From contig OZ244898.1 of NCBI GenBank assembly GCA_965221585.1, forward strand, positions 2,489,083 through 2,553,082: a DNA stretch of 64,000 nt, in the 5' to 3' direction. How positions within the stretch are numbered: position 1 is the stretch's first letter; the number at the start of each line of letters is the position of its first letter. Shown piece by piece: positions 1,416 through 8,627 of the stretch. The translations under genes and the position numbers were made by a program. Origin of the DNA: Candidatus Aldehydirespiratoraceae bacterium (GTDB taxonomy: Bacteria > Actinomycetota > Acidimicrobiia > Acidimicrobiales > Aldehydirespiratoraceae). The notes below the pieces were generated by a model. It made no database searches. It was not told where the DNA came from and was given only the letters and a program-made list of their open reading frames with translations.

Positions 1416-2057
1416 TCAGTTGAGCCAGGGTTCGTCCAATTCCCAGGGTTCGGGGTTGTCGGGTTTCGGGGCTCGCGAGGGGCGCGGTTCGGCCATTGCC
1501 TTGGCAGCGATCACACCACCGAGCATGCCGAACAGGTGACCTTCCCACGAGATGAAGTCCTGCGGGACTATCCCGGCCACCAGTCCGCCGTAGAACATGA
1601 TGACCAACAGTGCCGAGGCCAAGGCTCGCAGACGGCGCTCGAAGACCGCCGCGGCGAGGATCGCCCCGAAATACCCGAACACCACCCCGCTGGCACCGAT
1701 GTGGTTGCCGAATCCTGCAAGGGCCCAGGTCAGAGTGCCACCGATGACTATCACCGTCACTGTCACCCACGCCCAGTAGCGCATCCCCCGCACCGCGACC
1801 AGTCCACCGAGAATCAGCAGAGGCAGTGAATTCGAGGTGACGTGACCGAAGTCCGAATGGAGGAAAGGCGCGAAGGCGATGCCGTCGATTCCTTCCCGGC
1901 GCCGGGGGAGGATGCCATTGCCCTGAAGGCGGTCATCGAGTGCGAGCGTGTCGACAATCTCGATCCCCCACATTGCTGCGAGGGCCAGGAGCAGCAGACC
2001 GACCGGGGTCCACAGCAGTCGCCAAAGCGAGCGCCTCGGTTCTGCGGATTCGGGCAT
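1416..2057 (-). CDS. Rhomboid-family intramembrane serine protease
   Basis: PFLHSDFGHVTSN, HIGASG (catalytic Ser) and SWEGHLFG (catalytic His); multiple TM segments. Confidence 0.9.
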   Translation of the reverse strand: MPESAEPRRSLWRLLWTPVGLLLLALAAMWGIEIVDTLALDDRLQGNGILPRRREGIDGIAFAPFLHSDFGHVTSNSLPLLILGGLVAVRGMRYWAWVTVTVIVIGGTLTWALAGFGNHIGASGVVFGYFGAILAAAVFERRLRALASALLVIMFYGGLVAGIVPQDFISWEGHLFGMLGGVIAAKAMAEPRPSRAPKPDNPEPWELDEPWLN

Positions 2058-2138
2058 GCCTCATCGTAGATGCGACTCGCCGGAGAATTTCGCTAAGTTG
2101 TTCCGCTACCGGGTCGGCGACCAGCAGGAAAGACCGAG

Positions 2139-3089
2139 ATGAGCGACAACCCTCAGCCCCTTGGAGGCAACGAGATGCCGCGTTTCGGGGGCATCACGAC
2201 GTTCATGCGCCTGCCCGGAGCTTCATCGCCCGAAGAGTGCGATGTCGCCGTCGTGGGGGTGCCCTTCGATATCGGCACCTCCAACCGGCCCGGCGCCCGA
2301 TTCGGTCCCAGAGGCATCCGTGAAGAGTCGGTGCTGTTGCGTCCATACAACATGGCCACACGGGCCGCACCCTTCGACAGTCTGAGAATCGATGACCTGG
2401 GCGACGTCGCCACCAACCCCTACAACCTCATCGACTCCGTCGAGCGGATCACCAACCATTTCATGGAGTTGCTGCGACACGATCTCATCACCGTCGCCAT
2501 GGGCGGTGACCACACCATCGTCTTGCCGATTCTTCGTGCCATGGCCGCCAAACACGGACCGGTCGGTTTGGTCCACATCGACGCCCACACCGATATCAAC
2601 GACACCATGTTCGGCGAGAAGATCGCCCACGGCACCCCTTTTCGCCGCGCCGTCGAGGAGGGCCTGCTCGACGGGCCGCGCGTCGTGCAGATCGGCATGC
2701 GAGGCACCGGTTACGCCGCCGATGATTTCGACTGGTCCCGAGAGCAGGGGTTTCGGGTGGTGCAGATCGAGGAGTGCTGGCATCGGAGCCTCGATCCGCT
2801 CATGGAGGAAGTGCGGGTCCAACTCGGGTCCGGACCGGTCTATCTGAGCTTCGATATCGACGGACTCGACCCGTCGTTCGCTCCTGGTACGGGAACGCCC
2901 GAGGTCGCAGGTCTGACCACGACTCAGGCGCTGGAAATAATCCGTGGCTGCCGCGGCCTCGACCTGGTGGGGTGCGACCTGGTTGAGGTTGCGCCCATCT
3001 ACGACACCAGCGGTGCCACATCGCTGACCGCCGCCAACATGCTCTACGAGATGCTCTGCGTCCTACCCGGTGTCGAGTATCGGAAGTGA
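2139..3089 (+). CDS. Ureohydrolase of the agmatinase family, guanidinobutyrase (GbuA)-like
   Basis: GGDH, DAHTD, SFDIDGLDP and APGTGTP Mn-binding motifs. The N-terminus QPLGGNEMPRFGG resembles Pseudomonas GbuA as I recall it. Confidence 0.88.
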   Translation: MSDNPQPLGGNEMPRFGGITTFMRLPGASSPEECDVAVVGVPFDIGTSNRPGARFGPRGIREESVLLRPYNMATRAAPFDSLRIDDLGDVATNPYNLIDSVERITNHFMELLRHDLITVAMGGDHTIVLPILRAMAAKHGPVGLVHIDAHTDINDTMFGEKIAHGTPFRRAVEEGLLDGPRVVQIGMRGTGYAADDFDWSREQGFRVVQIEECWHRSLDPLMEEVRVQLGSGPVYLSFDIDGLDPSFAPGTGTPEVAGLTTTQALEIIRGCRGLDLVGCDLVEVAPIYDTSGATSLTAANMLYEMLCVLPGVEYRK

Positions 3090-3319
3090 CCAGCAAGCCT
3101 GACCAAGGACATGGTTCCGAATCAATGCCCCACTCACGAGAAACTGAACCAACTTTCTCCATTCGCAGTTTCTGGATAGCGGCTCTCTCGGGCGTGATCT
3201 GTCTAGGAATCTATTGGCTCGTATTCGGCATCAGTTCCGAAGCGCTAATTCCCGCGGGAGGTGCTGTAGTAGCGGTATTGGTCGGCACAGTCATACGACA
3301 CAGGCAAGCAACTAGCTGA
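3086..3319 (+). CDS. Small hypothetical 2-TM membrane protein
   Basis: GTG start overlaps the upstream stop (GTGA). Two hydrophobic segments; AT-richer codon usage. Confidence 0.5.
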   Translation: MTSKPDQGHGSESMPHSRETEPTFSIRSFWIAALSGVICLGIYWLVFGISSEALIPAGGAVVAVLVGTVIRHRQATS

Positions 3320-3357
3320 CGGAAATGGCCCCAAAGAAATGTGTCTCTTGGCAACAG

Positions 3358-3615
3358 TTAGCATTGGCGCCTGGTGTTGTGCTCGGCGAGCACCACCTCC
3401 AGACGTGCTCCGGCGATAAGGCCTGCTAATTCATCGTGTGACCGGTCTTCGGCGTGTGCCGCGGAGTGCTCTTCGACCAGATCCCCGAACGATTGCTCTG
3501 CAAACACTTGGGCCTCAGCCGCGCGTTCGCACGCCTCTGCGTTGTACGAGCCTCCGCACCCGGTTAGAGCGAGGCTTGTCGTTGCAACGACAAGCCTCAC
3601 GATGGTTCGGTTCAC
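3358..3615 (-). CDS. Small putative lipoprotein (85 aa)
   Basis: GTG at 3615 overlaps the upstream stop (GTGA). MNRTIVRLVVATTSLALTG-C lipobox followed by a helical domain with a Cys pair. Confidence 0.6.
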   Translation of the reverse strand: MNRTIVRLVVATTSLALTGCGGSYNAEACERAAEAQVFAEQSFGDLVEEHSAAHAEDRSHDELAGLIAGARLEVVLAEHNTRRQC

Positions 3616-3902
3616 CCGTCGTTTTCCAAAGGGAACGCGGCTCGGCCCCAGACGACCCACGCTACCCAGGCCACGGACCAAGTCAGAACCGTAGCGATTG
3701 TGACAAGTGCGTGGACGGCCAGTGAGTATTGAAACACGCTCTCAGGGATTACTACCGCCAACGGCACCACCAGCCCGACAATCACCCACGCAAGCGTCTC
3801 ACCTCGGCTTCTGGCCCACCAAAATACTCGGTGTGCAGCTTGTTGCTTGGATCGCCGCATTTCCTCTCTGTACTCGCTTACCACGAGCCTAAACGTGCTC
3901 AT
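3612..3902 (-). CDS. Small 2-TM membrane protein (96 aa), possible immunity protein
   Basis: ATG at 3902 overlaps the upstream stop (ATGA). Basic N-terminus followed by two Trp-rich hydrophobic helices. Confidence 0.6.
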   Translation of the reverse strand: MSTFRLVVSEYREEMRRSKQQAAHRVFWWARSRGETLAWVIVGLVVPLAVVIPESVFQYSLAVHALVTIATVLTWSVAWVAWVVWGRAAFPLENDG

Positions 3903-4297
3903 CCCGACACCGCCGCAATGACAGCGGCACATCCTGCGCCAGCCACCCCAGCACCAATGGGCCCGGCCGGAAGACCTACGCCATAGCACAACCAACCCGC
4001 TGAACCACCAATCAGCGCGCGCTCCCACCAGTGCGTGTGCGAAACGTTCACGCAGACCTGCCGCCAACGTGTGACTGTGCGAGTCACCCATTCTCCGTTC
4101 TCTCGTGCTCTCGTTGTGACAGCATAAGGGGTCCAGCTACACGAGCGTTGAGTATGCGCCGACACTACAGATTCGTCTGTCAGCAAGTCGCCCACTACCG
4201 GCATGGCGCCGATAACCGGTGTCGTTGCTGGCAATGGTGCTACCGTCAAAGTGGCCGTTAGCGCAACTGCTGTGAGCAAGCGGGCGAGGGTCTTCAA
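3899..4297 (-). CDS. Secreted protein with His/Cys hairpin and Gly-rich hydrophobic C-terminus (bacteriocin-like)
   Basis: Probable TTG start at 4297 after a G-rich RBS. Signal-like N-terminus KTLARLLTAVALTATLTVA; then VSA-HTQRSC...C-VNVSHTH; C-terminus ALIGGSAGWLC...GPIGAGVAGAGCAAVIAAVSG. Confidence 0.65.
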   Translation of the reverse strand: MKTLARLLTAVALTATLTVAPLPATTPVIGAMPVVGDLLTDESVVSAHTQRSCSWTPYAVTTRARENGEWVTRTVTRWRQVCVNVSHTHWWERALIGGSAGWLCYGVGLPAGPIGAGVAGAGCAAVIAAVSG

Positions 4298-4333
4298 GGG
4301 AACCCCCAAGACAAAAGGGAACCCCCAAGACAA
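4296..4333. repeat. Perfect 19-bp tandem duplication (aagggaacccccaagacaa x2) covering the RBS of the 3899-4297 gene
   Basis: 4296-4314 and 4315-4333 are identical. Confidence 0.95.
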
Positions 4334-4360
4334 GAGGAGCGTGCATTAGATTTCTCATTT

Positions 4361-4396
4361 CTACGTGACGGATACTTGCTGTTATCCACCGTGTAG
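4361..4396 (+). other. Candidate lox-like recombination site A
   Basis: ctacgtgacggata-CTTGCTGT-tatccaccgtgtag: 14-bp imperfect inverted arms (10/14 complementary) around an asymmetric 8-bp spacer. Confidence 0.55.
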
Positions 4397-4688
4397 ACGT
4401 GTTGACCACGAACATTTGAAGCGCACCGACTCCAACCACATCACCACTGGTAGAAGGTAAAATTAGAGATGATCGAAGCGGCCTAGGCCATCCCAAGCGT
4501 GTTGTCGGCGACTAACGTCCAGTCACCATTCGGGGCGAGTACCAACCTTCCCAGATTCGGTAGAGTCCGGGCTTTGAGGCTCGTCCGATAAAGAAATTCA
4601 GTTGGCCAACCTGCTAACTGTCGACGCAGGTCAACCACGCAATCGGCGGGCACGGGTCGGAGTCGGTCAAAAACTGAGCTGACAAGAC

Positions 4689-4720
4689 TTGACAACCGTC
4701 CCAGACCCAAGATATGAAAT
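4689..4720 (+). promoter_or_regulatory. Candidate sigma70-type promoter inside the putative invertible segment
   Basis: Perfect TTGACA at 4689-4694 and an AT-rich -10-like tatgaaat at 4713-4720, facing the recombinase. Confidence 0.45.
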
Positions 4721-4743
4721 AACAGCAATTATCTACTGAGTGC
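4708..4743 (-). other. Candidate lox-like recombination site B, inverted relative to site A
   Basis: The minus strand reads gcactcagtagata-ATTGCTGT-tatttcatatcttg. Core 4719-4733 matches 4371-4385 at 14/15 in reverse orientation. Confidence 0.55.
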
Positions 4744-4789
4744 ACCTTGTGGAGTTCCGTTCAGACACGAACCTGCTAAATCTGTGGTC

Positions 4790-5836
4790 ATGACTCAAAC
4801 CACAGGAAACATAATAAAAGCGGCCCGATGTGTGAACGTTGCACACATTGCAGATGAGGACCTGAGCGACGAAGCGATTGCGAGGTTGATCACCCAAGGC
4901 AAAGCTGCCGCTCATTCGGACAACACCCGGAAGACCTACGGCATCGGATACAGGAGTTGGAGTCGGTGGGCGTCTGGCCGTGGTCTCCCGGTGTTTCCCG
5001 CCGATCCAACACACCTTCAGAAGTGGCTCGCGGCCTTGACTAACCAGCACAAGAAACCCTCGACTTTGCGCACCTATCTTGCTGGGGTGGTGTACATGCA
5101 CCGCGAGTGCGACGAACTGAACCCAGCCCGTGATCCCCAGGTCCGACAACTGCTACGGGGCCTGACCCGCAAGTCTGCCGCTGACGGGTACGCCGCTAAA
5201 CAAGCCTCTCCGCTGCGCTGGTGCCACATCCAACGCATTGCTGACACGGCACACAACCCACGACGCAACCAACCCGGCGGGCGCATAGAAAACCCTCATC
5301 AAGCCCGACAACGCGCCAATGCCGACATCGCAATGATCACAGTTGCGCACGACGCCGCCTTGCGTGGCAGCGAACTGCTCGCTCTCACCTGGGCAGACAT
5401 AGTGCCGTCAAAAGGCAACGAATGCGGGCTAGTGAACATTCGCCGCTCAAAGAGCGATCAAACAGGCGAAGGAGCTGTCGCACCCATATCCGAATTCGCC
5501 TCGCAAGCGCTCACCCGAATGAAACCTGACGACGCCGAACCAGACGATCGCATCTTCAGGTTCTCACCCAACACCCTCAACCGTCGCCTAAAGGCCGCAG
5601 CGCGAACCGCCGACATGAACGTCCGACACATCAGCAGTCATTCACCGCGGGTGGGGATGGCCCAAGACCTCTTGGCCTACGGCACCGACATGCCCGGCCT
5701 CATGCAAGCAGGCCGTTGGAAAACCCCCGGGACCGTCGCCCGCTACACCGAACATCTCGCCGCGCACCACACCGCGGCCGGTCAGTACCTCAGAACCCAG
5801 CAAAGAACCAACCCGCTGGACCACAGGGAGACCTAA
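4790..5836 (+). CDS. Cre-like tyrosine recombinase/integrase
   Basis: Helical N-domain (NTRKTY...WSRW). Catalytic R (ALRGSE), K (RRSKSDQ), HxxR (SHSPRVG), W (GRWKT) and Y (VARYT), the Cre-type arrangement. Confidence 0.92.
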   Translation: MTQTTGNIIKAARCVNVAHIADEDLSDEAIARLITQGKAAAHSDNTRKTYGIGYRSWSRWASGRGLPVFPADPTHLQKWLAALTNQHKKPSTLRTYLAGVVYMHRECDELNPARDPQVRQLLRGLTRKSAADGYAAKQASPLRWCHIQRIADTAHNPRRNQPGGRIENPHQARQRANADIAMITVAHDAALRGSELLALTWADIVPSKGNECGLVNIRRSKSDQTGEGAVAPISEFASQALTRMKPDDAEPDDRIFRFSPNTLNRRLKAAARTADMNVRHISSHSPRVGMAQDLLAYGTDMPGLMQAGRWKTPGTVARYTEHLAAHHTAAGQYLRTQQRTNPLDHRET

Positions 5837-5916
5837 TGCTGTCTGTCCTCCGACGGTAGTACCTTGCCCTGCTGCGTTGATGACCGATAATGACGCGCCC
5901 GCGTCCATAATGAAGC

Positions 5917-6762
5917 GTGATCGCGGTAGGTGAAACGTCTCCGATACTGGCGAGGCAGCGTGATCTGTATGTCGACCTGTTGATGGGGTGCCTCAGCCGT
6001 GAGTTGTTCCTGGCTGAGGAGAGCCACGACGTCGACCTCGCGGAATGGCCTGGCGATGCTGATGAACTCCGTTCGCTGCTCAAGGCCAACCAATGGCGCC
6101 TGACCAAACAGGGTGGCCGGCCCGATCTGCGAGCCGAAGGCCATGACTGGCCGCCGGCTGCGGAGACCATGGTCGGCCGGCAACGACTGGCCGATGTCCG
6201 TTGGTGCATCGAAGCGGTGATGGCTGAAGAAGTGCCGGGAGACTTCATCGAGACAGGTGTTTGGCGTGGCGGCGTCACGATCCTCATGAAGGGGATGCTC
6301 GAAGCTTGGGGAGACACCCAGCGTCGCGTCTGGGTAGCCGACAGTTTCAGCGGCCTGCCGGTGCCCGATCCGAACAACTATCCGGCCGATGAAGGCCACG
6401 ACATGTCCACGGTCAAGGCGCTACAGGTCTCGGTTGATGAGGTAAAGGCCAACTTTGATCGGTACGGCCTGCTCGATGAGCGGGTGTGTTTCCTCGAAGG
6501 CTGGTTCACCGACACCTTGCACACCGCGCCGATCGACCAACTTGCGATCCTGCGGCTCGACGGCGACCTGTACGAGTCGACCATGGACGCTCTCAGCGCC
6601 CTGTATCCGAAGCTCAGCGTCGGCGGGTATGTGCTGGTCGACGACTATGGCGCCTGGGAACCCTGCCGGAAGGCCGTTGACGACTACCGTGCCGCCAACG
6701 ACATCACCGACGAGATCGTGAATGTCGACTGGACCGGCATCCACTGGCGGCGCAGCGCCTGA
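5917..6762 (+). CDS. TylF/MycF/NovP-family O-methyltransferase
   Basis: ETMVG, VPGDFIETGVWRGG, VADSFSGLP, LRLDGDLYESTMD, VDDYG. Confidence 0.92.
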   Translation: MIAVGETSPILARQRDLYVDLLMGCLSRELFLAEESHDVDLAEWPGDADELRSLLKANQWRLTKQGGRPDLRAEGHDWPPAAETMVGRQRLADVRWCIEAVMAEEVPGDFIETGVWRGGVTILMKGMLEAWGDTQRRVWVADSFSGLPVPDPNNYPADEGHDMSTVKALQVSVDEVKANFDRYGLLDERVCFLEGWFTDTLHTAPIDQLAILRLDGDLYESTMDALSALYPKLSVGGYVLVDDYGAWEPCRKAVDDYRAANDITDEIVNVDWTGIHWRRSA

Positions 6763-6763
6763 C

Positions 6764-7453
6764 ATGGGCGAGATCAACACCTACTACGGGCTGCTGCGGA
6801 GAGCCCACGAGGTACTTGAACCTCAGCGTTACCTGGAAATCGGCGTCCACAAAGGCCATGCGTTAGCGCTGGCTGGACCACAGACCCGAGTGGTGGGAGT
6901 TGATCCCGATCCCCTCGTCACCGACCTGAGCGACAACACCGAGGTCGTGTCGGCAACCTCCGACGACTTCTTCGCCGACGCGGACCTTCTGGGCCTGCTC
7001 GGAGGGCCGATCGACCTAGCCTTCGTCGACGGCCTCCATCTATACGAACAGGCGCTCCGAGACGTGGCCAATGTTGAGCGCAACAGCGACCCCGACGGCG
7101 TCATCCTGATTCACGACTGCCTGCCGATCGACGCGGCAACCTCGGCCCGGGAGCAGACCAGCATGGTCTGGTCCGGCGATGTCTGGAAGGTCGTGGTGGC
7201 ATTGCGCCGCTACCGGCCTGACCTCAGCGTCACCACCGTCGACGTGGAACCTACGGGCCTGGCGATCGTTTCCGGCCTCGACCCCGACAGCAACGTCCTG
7301 TTCGACCGCTATGAGCAGATCGTCGACGAGCTAGCGGACCTCAGCTTCGAAGACCTCGAGGATCTCGGACGCCGCGAGACGCTCAACGTTGTCGATGCCG
7401 ACTGGCAGACCGTCGAGGAGCTGCTCAACAGCAACCACCACCAGAGCCGATAA
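6764..7453 (+). CDS. Class I SAM-dependent methyltransferase (Methyltransf_24-like)
   Basis: YLEIGVHKG, IDLAFVDGLH, ILIHDCLP, WSGDVWK; ATG 1 nt after the upstream stop. Confidence 0.85.
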   Translation: MGEINTYYGLLRRAHEVLEPQRYLEIGVHKGHALALAGPQTRVVGVDPDPLVTDLSDNTEVVSATSDDFFADADLLGLLGGPIDLAFVDGLHLYEQALRDVANVERNSDPDGVILIHDCLPIDAATSAREQTSMVWSGDVWKVVVALRRYRPDLSVTTVDVEPTGLAIVSGLDPDSNVLFDRYEQIVDELADLSFEDLEDLGRRETLNVVDADWQTVEELLNSNHHQSR

Positions 7454-7541
7454 GCCCTCGTCCGGCTGGGGGATCGACTGGTTTCGGTCGTGGGGCTAAA
7501 GTCGGGGGTTCGAGACGGTCGAGAACACGGAGAGCAGAACG

Positions 7542-8627
7542 ATGCCACAAACGGTCAAGGGAGTTATTTCAGCGGCGGTTGGTGAGCCGGTCACGTTAAC
7601 CGACATCGTGATCCCCGATCCCGGGCCGGGCGAAGCAGTGGTGGCGATACAGGCTTGCGGGGTGTGCCACACAGACCTCCACTATCGCGAGGGCGGGATC
7701 AACGACGAATTCCCGTTCCTGCTCGGCCACGAGGCCTCCGGCATCGTCGAGTCCGTCGGTGACGGGGTGAGTGAAGTCGCTCCGGGCGACTTCGTGATCC
7801 TCAACTGGCGGGCGGTGTGCGGCGACTGCCGATCATGCAACCGGGGCAGGCCGCATCTCTGTTTCAGCACCCACAACGCCACCCAGAAGATGACCCTCGA
7901 AGATGGCACCGAACTGTCACCGGCCCTGGGTATCGGTGCTTTCGCCGAGAAGACGCTGGTAGCTGCCGGCCAGTGCACCAAGGTCGATCCCGAGGCCTCC
8001 CCCGCCGCAGCGGGACTGCTGGGTTGCGGCGTGATGGCCGGGATCGGTGCGGCCATCAACACCGGAGGTGTCGGACGCGGTGACAGCGTGGCGGTGTTCG
8101 GCTGCGGAGGTGTCGGCAACGCGGCCATTGCGGGGGCACAACTAGCCGGGGCGTCCACCATCATCGCCGTCGATATCGACGACCGTAAGCTCGAACTGGC
8201 CAAGGGTTTCGGAGCGCACCACACGATCAACTCGAGCGAAGAGGACGCGGTCGCCAAGATCCAGGAGTACACGGGTGGGTTCGGGGCCGATGTCACCATC
8301 GATGCCATCGGACTTCCCGAGGTGTACAAGCAGTGCTTCGAAGCACGGGATCTTGCGGGCACCGTGGTGCTCGTCGGGGTGCCGACGCCCGAGATGAAAG
8401 TCGAGCTGCCATTCCAGGAGGTGTTCGGCCGGGGCGGGGCGCTCAAGTCGAGCTGGTACGGCGACTGTCTGCCGACCAGGGACTTCCCGATGCTGATCGA
8501 CCTCTATCAGCAGGGCCGACTCAACCTCGACGGGTTCGTGTCCGAGACGATCGGTCTCGACGGCGTGGAGGAGGCCTTCCACAAGATGGAGCGGGGCGAG
8601 GTGCTGCGCTCTGTGGTCCTCACCTGA
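7542..8627 (+). CDS. mscR: S-(hydroxymethyl)mycothiol dehydrogenase / S-nitrosomycothiol reductase
   Basis: Zn-ADH motifs GVCHTD, GHE and CGDCRSC; family-typical [17 protein letters not shown] and [11 protein letters not shown]. Confidence 0.9.

Follow-up and report, generated by a model that had tools for sequence, protein, structure and literature searches.

The window analysed here, a stretch of 64,000 nucleotides from the genome of a Candidatus Aldehydirespiratoraceae bacterium (contig OZ244898.1), carries an inserted island in which a recombinase gene, REC, and a gene for a variable secreted protein, X, point away from each other on either side of a short non-coding module bounded by two inverted lox-like sites, Table 1. 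In nine of the twelve relatives that bear the agmatinase gene, this gene is followed directly by a TylF methyltransferase gene; in the window 2.8 kb lie between the two, with a G+C content of 0.50-0.58 compared with about 0.63-0.66 in the flanks, and one other genome (G005) has a different family member at the same spot. No lox half-sites were found near 3095 and 5880, the two ends of the island, where an integrative element would have hybrid-site ends, and the best match to a further half-site within 2000-8000 was only 15/20, inside the agmatinase gene. In relatives the junctions of the element seem to lie outside the sites, in the leader that separates site 2 from REC.

Table 1 Features of the island and of the two-site module (positions within the window)
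Feature	Position	Strand	Description
Inserted island	3095-5880	.	About 2.8 kb of lower G+C; p77, lipoprotein-like gene, membrane-protein gene, X, two-site module, REC
Lipoprotein-like gene	3358-3681	-	107 aa; downstream of X, same strand
Membrane-protein gene	3612-4091	-	159 aa; downstream of X, same strand
Gene X	3899-4346	-	144-aa ORF from TTG 4333; signal-peptide-like N-terminus, Gly-rich C-terminus
Tandem duplication	4296-4333	.	Perfect, 19 bp, AAGGGAACCCCCAAGACAA twice; within the 5' end of X
Site 1 (site A)	4362-4395	+	13-8-13, lox-like; outer arm TACGTGACGGATA (4362-4374), spacer CTTGCTGT (4375-4382), inner arm TATCCACCGTGTA (4383-4395)
Interior, candidate invertible segment	4396-4708	.	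313 bp, non-coding; alignable from end to end with 21 other modules
Conserved interior block	4627-4645	+	CAGGT(A/C)AACC..CAATCG; CAGGT at least 80% conserved, neighbouring columns 70-90%
CTTGACAAC box	4688-4696	+	-35-type TTGACA at 4689-4694, toward REC; at least 80% conserved over 22 modules, adjoining site 2
Site 2 (site B)	4709-4742	-	Inner arm AAGATATGAAATA (4709-4721), spacer ACAGCAAT (4722-4729; reverse complement ATTGCTGT), outer arm TATCTACTGAGTG (4730-4742)
REC	4790-5836	+	Cre-type tyrosine recombinase, 348 aa; GTG 4784 is a possible alternative start

The product of REC matches Phage_integrase and a SAM-like N-domain in Pfam, and among solved structures it is closest to 17 Cre or Cre-derived chains (E 1.7e-12 to 5e-11), which align with residues 26-326 and thus with both domains; XerD reaches an E of 0.005 only, and in NCBIfam the protein stays far under every family cut-off, the Xer and integron-integrase models included. 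All 25 phage records that match REC cover at least 80% of it, and the 12 of these 25 that are listed are all Escherichia, Enterobacteria, Salmonella, Cronobacter or Punavirus phages, with 11 of the P1/P7/SJ46/RCS47 type and ten annotated as cre. Identity to Cre is about 23%. The catalytic residues R192, K221, H284, R287, W310 and Y319, kept in 11 of 11 intact homologues, are the counterparts of R173, K201, H289, R292, W315 and Y324, the residues given for Cre in PMC10250229. The assignment to the Cre type made in the initial annotation is thus borne out by similarity over the N-terminal and catalytic domains and by all six catalytic residues. The family occurs in multiple copies (at most seven matches in one genome), with an internal stop in 5 of 33 listed places and several other partial copies.

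The inverted pair of lox-like sites in the window is real. The 15-bp core GATACTTGCTGTTAT (4371-4385), reported from the outset to recur in inverted orientation, does so as ATAACAGCAATTATC (4719-4733), its reverse complement at 14 of 15 positions, and the other descriptions given at that stage were reproduced as well: the lox geometry of site 1 (34 bp, arms complementary at 9/13), the same central 6 bp, TTGCTG, in both spacers, and the match at 9 of 12 positions between the outer arm of site 2 and the reverse complement of the inner arm of site 1. The two sites lie 347 bp apart, site 2 being inverted relative to site 1. In 200 shuffles of the 456-bp intergenic stretch an inverted match of 14/15 or better never arose, and of the three occurrences of the 10-mer TTGCYGTTAT on both strands of the 3.07-Mb genome two are these sites. 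When the genome was scanned with a consensus built from other genomes, site 1 was the best match (26/34, runner-up 22/34); site 2 scored below 20/34, and its acceptance rests on where it lies and how it aligns with the other modules. The four arms of the window are poorly alike (9/13 and less), those of site 2 being degenerate, and its sites are the most degenerate of the 22-module set described below: canonical sites of relatives reach 30-33/34 against a palindromic consensus, compared with the 26/34 and less than 20/34 found here. A second inverted pair of equal length within 3600-6400 (I12, 4631-4645 and 4875-4889) has one half in the conserved interior block and the other in the REC coding region; in six other REC-adjacent modules that bear the block its best counterpart was 9-12/15, at varying places, and two modules lack the block, so that we set I12 aside as chance.

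Related Acidimicrobiia genomes provide a set of 22 complete copies of a module of about 380 bp (17 in 11 genomes and five further loci), all of which have two inverted 13-8-13 sites 322-348 bp apart, with the CTTGACAAC box adjoining the REC-proximal site and the start of a variable gene X beyond the other. The genome-collection scan matched 90 stretches, and among the 80 listed the 18 of Acidimicrobiia type were examined, the other 62 belonging to other phyla. REC, intact or broken, stands directly beside site 2 in 10 of the 22 modules, the core TAATTGCCGTTAT of site 1 is at least 80% conserved over all of them, and the arms end in GATA or AATA beside the spacer, in keeping with the (G/A)ATA ends that PMC10250229 reports for active Cre-type targets. 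Paired inverted cores, which the initial annotation had proposed to look for next to homologues of REC, are thus conserved there, together with the TTGACA box and the divergent secreted-protein gene. The interiors of close relatives differ by indels of 1-2 nt. At a larger scale, G001 has a stretch of about 33 kb with two REC genes between two near-identical modules placed in inverted order, three REC-module-X units lie about 14 kb apart in G003, and the mosaic module G003a has its right breakpoint precisely within site 2, which suggests that the sites have been used in vivo. Among metagenome contigs the pattern of box plus site 2 gave no match and the two-core pattern a single locus, which is taken as the same module as L110 since the two contigs are equally long (23,558). 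The short two-core pattern also hit 26 loci in viral contigs, none with lox-like arms (best 19/34) or a box, and these were discarded as chance.

The crossover cores of the two sites change in concert. In 20 of 22 modules both spacers have the same central 6 bp (130 of 132 cells match), compared with an identity of 65% for the arms. Departures from TTGCCG show the same letter in both sites in eight cells and affect one site only in two, while the same count for the arms gives 39 and 199. On a tree built from the interiors alone, paired core changes fall in about six lineages, TTGCTG having arisen three times and CTGCCG, TCGCCG and ATGCCG once each, and a permutation test of the covariation reached the observed value in 0 of 100,000 trials. 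Position 1 of the spacer, which lies outside a Cre-like 6-bp overlap, differs between the sites in four modules. This pattern fits a recombining pair with a Cre-like overlap of 6 bp, the overlap invoked in the initial annotation. In G003 one module has TTGCTG in both sites and the others TTGCCG, which places the partner of each site within its own module. Pairing of the two sites as RNA or single strands was considered as a cause of the covariation and rejected, the arms being only 65% alike and the core 98%. On the strength of the concerted core change and the mosaic breakpoint in site 2, REC is a candidate for the enzyme acting on the two sites.

As first described, the TTGACA of the box faces the ATG of REC. 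This ATG lies 47 nt past site 2, and the box is a putative promoter. Inside the inner arm of site 2, 18 nt downstream of TTGACA, is TATGAA (4713-4718), a weak candidate for the -10 element; a scan with a promoter consensus called no promoter at the box because this second hexamer lacks the final T. The only minus-strand call of the scan, 4836-4808, is inside REC and outside the module, and by eye no leftward promoter for X could be made out in the conserved columns beside site 1, which is a weak negative. A search of 3000-6000 against Rfam gave no match at E up to 1.

Gene X begins close to site 1. The distance of about 75 bp given for the cargo start in the initial annotation has to be corrected, since the ATG at 4346 lies 15 nt and the TTG 28 nt from the outer edge of the site. 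This ATG is the homologue of the start of X in relatives; the 19-bp duplication puts it in a different frame from the 144-aa ORF. Among the first 17 modules the ATG stands 3-20 nt beyond site 1, which leaves no room for a separate X promoter, and 16 of them have a GGAGA-type ribosome-binding site in front of it, the window being without one; in four of the five later loci (L060, L076, L110 and L131) X starts about 30-45 nt from site 1. Compared with the 206-aa X of relatives, the protein of the window has 29% identity over 102 aa (pairwise E 2e-4). Neither it nor the products of its two neighbours match Pfam or PHROG, and seven X proteins of relatives gave only sub-threshold hints of fn3, Gly-zipper and PilP, so that the earlier description of the cargo as bacteriocin-like finds no bacteriocin or other family match in these searches. 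In one relative, a similar lipoprotein-like ORF was noticed by eye near a REC gene. Given its degenerate arms and the duplication in X, the copy in the window may be a decaying member of the family.

All modules were found in one orientation. No flipped allele occurs among the 22 complete or the three truncated modules, the box always pointing away from X, even where REC is broken or missing; the opposite-orientation alleles for which the initial annotation had suggested searching related genomes are thus absent from this set. Four runs of one sample each gave, for 3900-5400, a single 13.6-kb contig identical to the window and without joints; these are assembled contigs, which drop rare forms, and possibly the source data of the genome itself. 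If the box were the sole promoter of REC, the flipped state would lock itself and should accumulate, while it is the opposite state that is always seen. A switch needs extra assumptions, for example that expressing X is costly, that autorepression is tight or that there is a second promoter.

An invertible promoter switch worked by the adjacent Cre-type REC is nevertheless our best reading of the locus, held with belief and doubt in about equal measure. According to this reading, REC monomers would bind the four arms and synapse site 1 with site 2, strand exchange would span the 6 bp at the centre of the 8-bp spacer, and the inverted placement of the sites would lead to a flip of the 313-bp segment. 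In the orientation of all assemblies, transcription would run through site 2 into REC, and REC bound to site 2 would cover its own promoter and repress itself; a flip would bring the box to a point some 35-40 nt upstream of the start of X, with its ribosome-binding site and ATG, and expression of X would be turned on. Binding by REC, inversion, promoter activity and the direction of control are here inferred from sequence. Of the autoregulated switch originally proposed, the Cre-type enzyme, the inverted pair, the box and the divergent gene stand, with the core covariation in addition, while no flipped allele and no bacteriocin match came to light. One could go further and regard the family as natural, self-contained Cre/lox inversion devices of uncultured Acidimicrobiia, which move a promoter back and forth between the gene of the enzyme and that of a hypervariable surface protein, with heterospecific cores that form orthogonal pairs and a flipped, X-expressing state that is rare or terminal; this is a tentative view, somewhat more doubtful than not, in which a rare or terminal flipped state would account for the single orientation in every assembly.

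These readings have to be weighed against others in which the segment has no role as a switch. The sites may be true REC sites that serve mobility or rearrangement, through segments exchanged between modules, inversions on a large scale, or the integration and excision of a REC-X island, any local flip being without regulatory role. Such a role would suit the insertion of the island relative to nine of twelve relatives and the different family member in its place in G005, the multiple copies of REC, some of them broken, the inverted modules around 33 kb in G001 and the three spaced units of G003, the mosaic of G003a with its breakpoint in site 2, and the invariant internal orientation. We nonetheless consider it unlikely, while giving it real weight: the spacer variants are specific to the module and not to the genome, as the two cores of G003 illustrate, the ends of the window's island are devoid of lox half-sites, two inverted sites cannot excise the DNA between them, and the fixed ribosome-binding site and ATG of X just outside site 1 argue for a coupling to expression.

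Still less probable, in our view, is the alternative already raised in the initial annotation, that the sites are operators only. On this view REC would bind both, perhaps with looping of the DNA between them, and would repress the promoter of its own gene and perhaps X as well, no productive exchange of strands taking place. Binding at site 2, which contains both the -10 candidate and the expected start of the transcript, would repress, and the constant orientation also speaks for operators; matching spacers, however, would be unneeded, and yet paired changes of the central 6 bp occur in about six lineages against a background of drifting arms, all catalytic residues are kept in 11 of 11 intact REC copies, and one mosaic breakpoint falls in site 2. 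As for a chance match in an AT-richer intergenic region, I12 is a reminder that an equally long inverted pair can occur nearby and prove non-conserved, but the shuffles and the recurrence of the pair, equally spaced, in 21 other modules refute this explanation and leave it practically no probability.

Close known systems include those of the Cre type. REC is related to Cre over both domains and shares its six catalytic residues, and the sites of the module, like the targets of Cre/loxP (P1), Dre/rox, Vika/vox and the further Cre-type enzymes of PMC10250229, have 34 bp in 13-8-13 order, within 1 kb of the gene and with arms ending in (G/A)ATA. The covariation pattern of the module fits the 6-bp overlap of Cre/loxP; REC differs from Cre in sequence and in its location, which is a chromosomal island of Acidimicrobiia and not a phage or plasmid. 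Phage P1 has a single lox site, for cyclisation and dimer resolution, whereas the REC module is fixed with two inverted sites about 345 bp apart. Switches worked by other tyrosine recombinases include fimS of E. coli, with FimB and FimE, and those of the Bacteroides Tsr recombinases. Invertible promoters of this kind are also described for UPEC (ipuS, PMC6083910) and for the RecV switches of C. difficile (PMC7446863). Switches of the ipuS, RecV and fimS type share with the module a neighbouring gene for a tyrosine recombinase and a segment of roughly 300 bp that has inverted repeats at its ends, contains a promoter-like box and abuts a surface or secreted protein gene. The repeats of the module are, in contrast to their short inverted repeats with flanking half-sites, complete palindromic lox-type sites, and its enzyme is Cre-type; those switches are defined by the observation of both orientations, while the module is seen in one only.

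The integron platform, with intI, attI and Pc, has an outward promoter that serves divergent, highly variable cargo. As in the integron, the gene of a tyrosine recombinase stands next to a recombination site in the module, together with a promoter that points outward, putative in our case; the module differs in having no attC-type cassette sites or array, two inverted double-stranded lox-like sites and a Cre-like enzyme. Inverted lox sites have been engineered into switches in the FLEx/DIO and heterospecific lox designs, to which the module would be a natural counterpart, with five spacer cores (TTGCCG, TTGCTG, CTGCCG, TCGCCG and ATGCCG). In the man-made designs, too, flipping between inverted lox-type sites alters expression and spacers must match within a pair, following the inversion and spacer rules of lox sites quoted in PMC10250229. 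Supplementary Table S2 of the same paper holds about 500 predicted recombinase and target pairs, among which the REC family may be found. Our literature search found nothing that joins Acidimicrobiia with invertons, and for inversion by Cre-like enzymes or at inverted lox sites it returned known switches only.

Covariation in the family makes clear that comparative genomics alone can reveal the crossover region of a site-specific recombinase. For genome engineering it offers a distant relative of Cre whose target is defined by 22 natural examples, and the five natural spacer cores, each matched within its own pair, hint at heterospecific sets. Should the segment never flip, a fixed inverted pair would still need explaining. 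If it does flip, the switch would be made of complete lox-type sites and a Cre-type enzyme, unlike the short repeats of fim-like systems, and would bring phase variation of a surface protein to a clade known here from metagenome-assembled genomes alone.

The inverted site pair beside the Cre-type recombinase gene (4790-5836, forward strand), reported in the initial annotation, is a genuine feature of the sequence: the 15-bp core at 4371-4385 matches its inverted copy at 4719-4733 at 14 of 15 positions, and a match of this quality arose in none of 200 shuffles of the 456-bp intergenic stretch. Of the three occurrences of the 10-mer TTGCYGTTAT in the 3.07-Mb genome, two are sites 1 and 2, and site 1 is the genome's best match to the consensus derived from other genomes (26/34, the next reaching 22/34). 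An equally long inverted pair, I12, also lies within 3600-6400, and shows no conservation in the other copies of the ~380-bp module formed by site 1, the interior, a TTGACA box and site 2. Given the shuffles and the recurrence of the pair in other modules, a chance match can be given almost no credence. By setting the site boundaries in register with related copies, we obtained two mutually inverted, lox-like 13-8-13 sites with identical central six spacer bases; TATGAA follows 18 nt after TTGACA, within the inner arm of site 2. The sequence details originally given for the sites hold on re-inspection, apart from the start of the divergent secreted-protein gene (gene X), which had wrongly been placed ~75 bp past site 1.

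Features between and around the recombinase gene and gene X in the window
Feature	Position	Description
Site 1	4362-4395	outer arm TACGTGACGGATA, spacer CTTGCTGT, inner arm TATCCACCGTGTA
Site 2	4709-4742	outer arm TATCTACTGAGTG, spacer ACAGCAAT (reverse complement ATTGCTGT), inner arm AAGATATGAAATA
TTGACA (box)	4689-4694	between the sites, near site 2
Recombinase start	ATG 4790	47 nt beyond site 2
ATG	4346	15 nt from site 1
TTG, start of 144-aa secreted-type ORF	4333	

The recombinase matches Pfam Phage_integrase and a SAM-like N-domain, with no NCBIfam model close to its cut-off. Among solved structures it is closest to 17 Cre or Cre-derived chains, with E from 1.7e-12 upwards across residues 26-326, compared with E 0.005 for XerD, and its six catalytic residues align with those of Cre and are present in 11/11 intact homologues. 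The 25 phage records matched all belong to enterobacterial phages; among the best 12 of these, 11 are of the P1/P7/SJ46/RCS47 type and 10 are annotated cre, at ~23% identity. The 1,175 plasmid matches all fall below 60% identity, the best 12 reaching at most 34% and bearing a generic name only. Homologues (E <=1e-10) occur in 15 of the 61 genomes searched, the window's own counted; of the 17 other genomes in its genus, 12 have them, with up to 7 matches per genome. Among the matches listed, an internal stop interrupts 5 of 33 places, and several more match only in part. These relatives are metagenome-assembled genomes of Acidimicrobiia, Acidimicrobiales and "Candidatus Aldehydirespiratoraceae".

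Modules in relatives were defined by a 13-8-13 palindrome search near homologues, a genus-wide pattern scan and a consensus scan of loci. The pattern scan matched 13 of 18 genomes, and a backwards control pattern matched in 10; single matches are therefore near noise, and the signal lies in pairs. Together the searches gave 16 site pairs, all in plus-then-minus order and 332-348 bp apart, which with the window make 17 modules in 11 genomes. When a species-genome collection was scanned for the box together with site 2, 90 stretches matched, and the 18 of Acidimicrobiia type inspected among the matches listed (80 of 90) comprised 13 known modules and 5 new ones. The total is thus 22 complete modules, all in Acidimicrobiia-type genomes, besides three truncated ones, and the paired inverted cores asked about initially do recur next to homologues. 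The 22 can be aligned end to end, with four blocks conserved to at least 80%: the site 1 core, CAGGT, CTTGACAAC and the site 2 core. Beyond site 2 lies the recombinase gene in 10 modules (intact in 6, broken or internally deleted in G015b, G002a, G008a and G009a), other DNA in 4, and in the others the ~100-bp leader that precedes the gene elsewhere. Where a recombinase gene has no module, a degenerate single site and this leader persist upstream of it, as seen around loci L048/L051 of genomes G015/G016. The complete module at locus L076, with TTGCTG in both sites, may be an orphan in its genome, apparently G012, in which no recombinase homologue was found at E <=1e-10.

The ATG of gene X lies 3-20 nt past site 1 in the first 17 modules (15 nt for the homologous ATG in the window), behind a GGAGA-type ribosome-binding site in 16 of them, the window being without one; in 4 of 5 later loci X starts ~30-45 nt from site 1. 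Its N-terminus is conserved (M-x-x-Q-P-D-A-P-K-T..R-R-H-R plus a signal peptide), and all X proteins, among them those at L044, L046, L048, L049 and L056, have in common a short N-terminal leader and a signal peptide that ends in ..SAH. Past the signal peptide they are highly divergent, often repetitive and of secreted type (129-1009 aa); His/Cys-rich or VAPF-type repeats occur in some, and none matched a family above threshold. In the window, the ATG at 4346 and the 144-aa ORF are in different frames because of a perfect 19-bp tandem duplication (4296-4333) at the 5' end of X: with one copy they would share a frame, and with two only the TTG is in frame. The duplication may have disabled the gene, or the tract may be prone to slippage. 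Since it shifts the frame, and since no other module with an intact recombinase has four arms as dissimilar as those in the window, this copy may be decaying.

In the window, ~2.8 kb of lower G+C (roughly 3095-5880) separates an agmatinase gene from a TylF methyltransferase gene, which directly follows agmatinase in 9 of 12 other genomes with agmatinase. Genome G005 carries a different recombinase-module-X unit at the same place (recombinase 61% identical), with TylF absent, and in G009 a homologue of the 77-aa ORF (3086-3319) adjoins the agmatinase gene. No lox half-site was found at the ends of the island in the window. Just upstream of TylF, at 5882-5935, is a short repeated motif, ..CCATAATG..GCGTG..GGTGAA.., present in one or two copies at empty sites in relatives (L148, L149, L154) and as two partial copies at the insertion's right edge in the window; it could represent either a small repeat element or a target for insertion. 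Genome G001 holds two near-identical modules in inverted order (L044 2795-3175, L045 16236-16616), ~33 kb apart, and the segment between them contains two recombinase genes and two large X genes facing inward, with the boxes outward at both ends. A 208-aa ORF in G015 (L048 5604-6230) joins a formate/nitrite-transporter-like N-terminus to a hydroxyacyl-CoA-dehydrogenase-like C-terminus; both source genes flank the element in G016 (L051), a configuration suggestive of tandem insertions and a later deletion.

Within a module, identity between the arms of site 1 and site 2 is 65%; for the central six spacer bases it extends to 130/132 cells and is complete in 20/22 modules. Departures from the TTGCCG core carry the same letter in both sites in 8 cells and are confined to a single site in 2; the corresponding arm counts are 39 and 199. 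When partners were shuffled among modules, the observed count of matched non-canonical pairs was reached in 0 of 100,000 trials, the window being one base out of register there. On a tree built from module interiors only, TTGCTG in both sites has three origins, namely the window, G003b (sister to two TTGCCG modules, support 100/100) and L076 (sister to L131, 96/93), and CTGCCG, TCGCCG and ATGCCG have one each. At spacer position 1, sites 1 and 2 disagree in four modules; at position 8 they always agree, and disagreement within the core is confined to two modules. Cre exchanges strands across a 6-bp overlap, and the spacer pattern, with its matched core and a position 1 free to differ, fits the overlap invoked initially and is what such exchange would be expected to leave. 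It is unexpected for operators or for pairing of the sites as RNA or single strands, because the arms would then co-vary too; their failure to do so led us to reject such pairing as the cause of the covariation. One genome can contain modules of different cores, and each site's partner therefore sits in its own module. Module G003a is a mosaic: its flanks resemble those of G003b and its interior that of G003d/G001b, and of its two breakpoints the right one falls exactly at the spacer/outer-arm junction of site 2, the left one 25-60 nt inside site 1. Genome G003 (L046/L047, contig C1 at ~2.570, 2.585 and 2.599 Mb) has three recombinase-module-X units ~14 kb apart with near-identical X, one with TTGCTG in both spacers, one with a core mismatch and one the mosaic. 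From these sequence comparisons we infer that the two sites are conserved and co-evolve as a substrate for recombination by a Cre-type enzyme.

The initial annotation proposed that the recombinase flips a promoter between its own gene and X. The co-evolving pair and its Cre-type enzyme bear this out in part, but a working switch is not what the orientation data suggest: 0/22 complete and 0/3 truncated modules, the window's included, are flipped, the box facing away from X in every one. For the window itself, the read data were contigs only, from four runs of a single sample that may be the source; they carry the reference form with no joints, although a minority form could escape contigs. Were the box the sole promoter of the recombinase, the flipped state should self-lock and therefore accumulate; the opposite was found, even in modules that have lost the gene. 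A promoter scan called no promoter at the box, and the -10 is weak. Promoter flipping between the two genes is nevertheless the best-fitting mechanism, judged from sequence, and we give it an even chance. It is possible, with about half that weight, that the sites serve exchange and mobility. That they are operators only, the alternative raised initially, seems rather unlikely, as matched spacer cores without covariation of the arms are not expected of operators.

A tyrosine-recombinase invertible promoter beside a surface-protein gene is an already known kind of arrangement. Our literature search found no paper joining Acidimicrobiia and inverton, nor any other relevant to the system. The novelty lies in the pairing of a Cre-type enzyme with full lox-type sites, in the host clade, and in the spacer variants that occur naturally.
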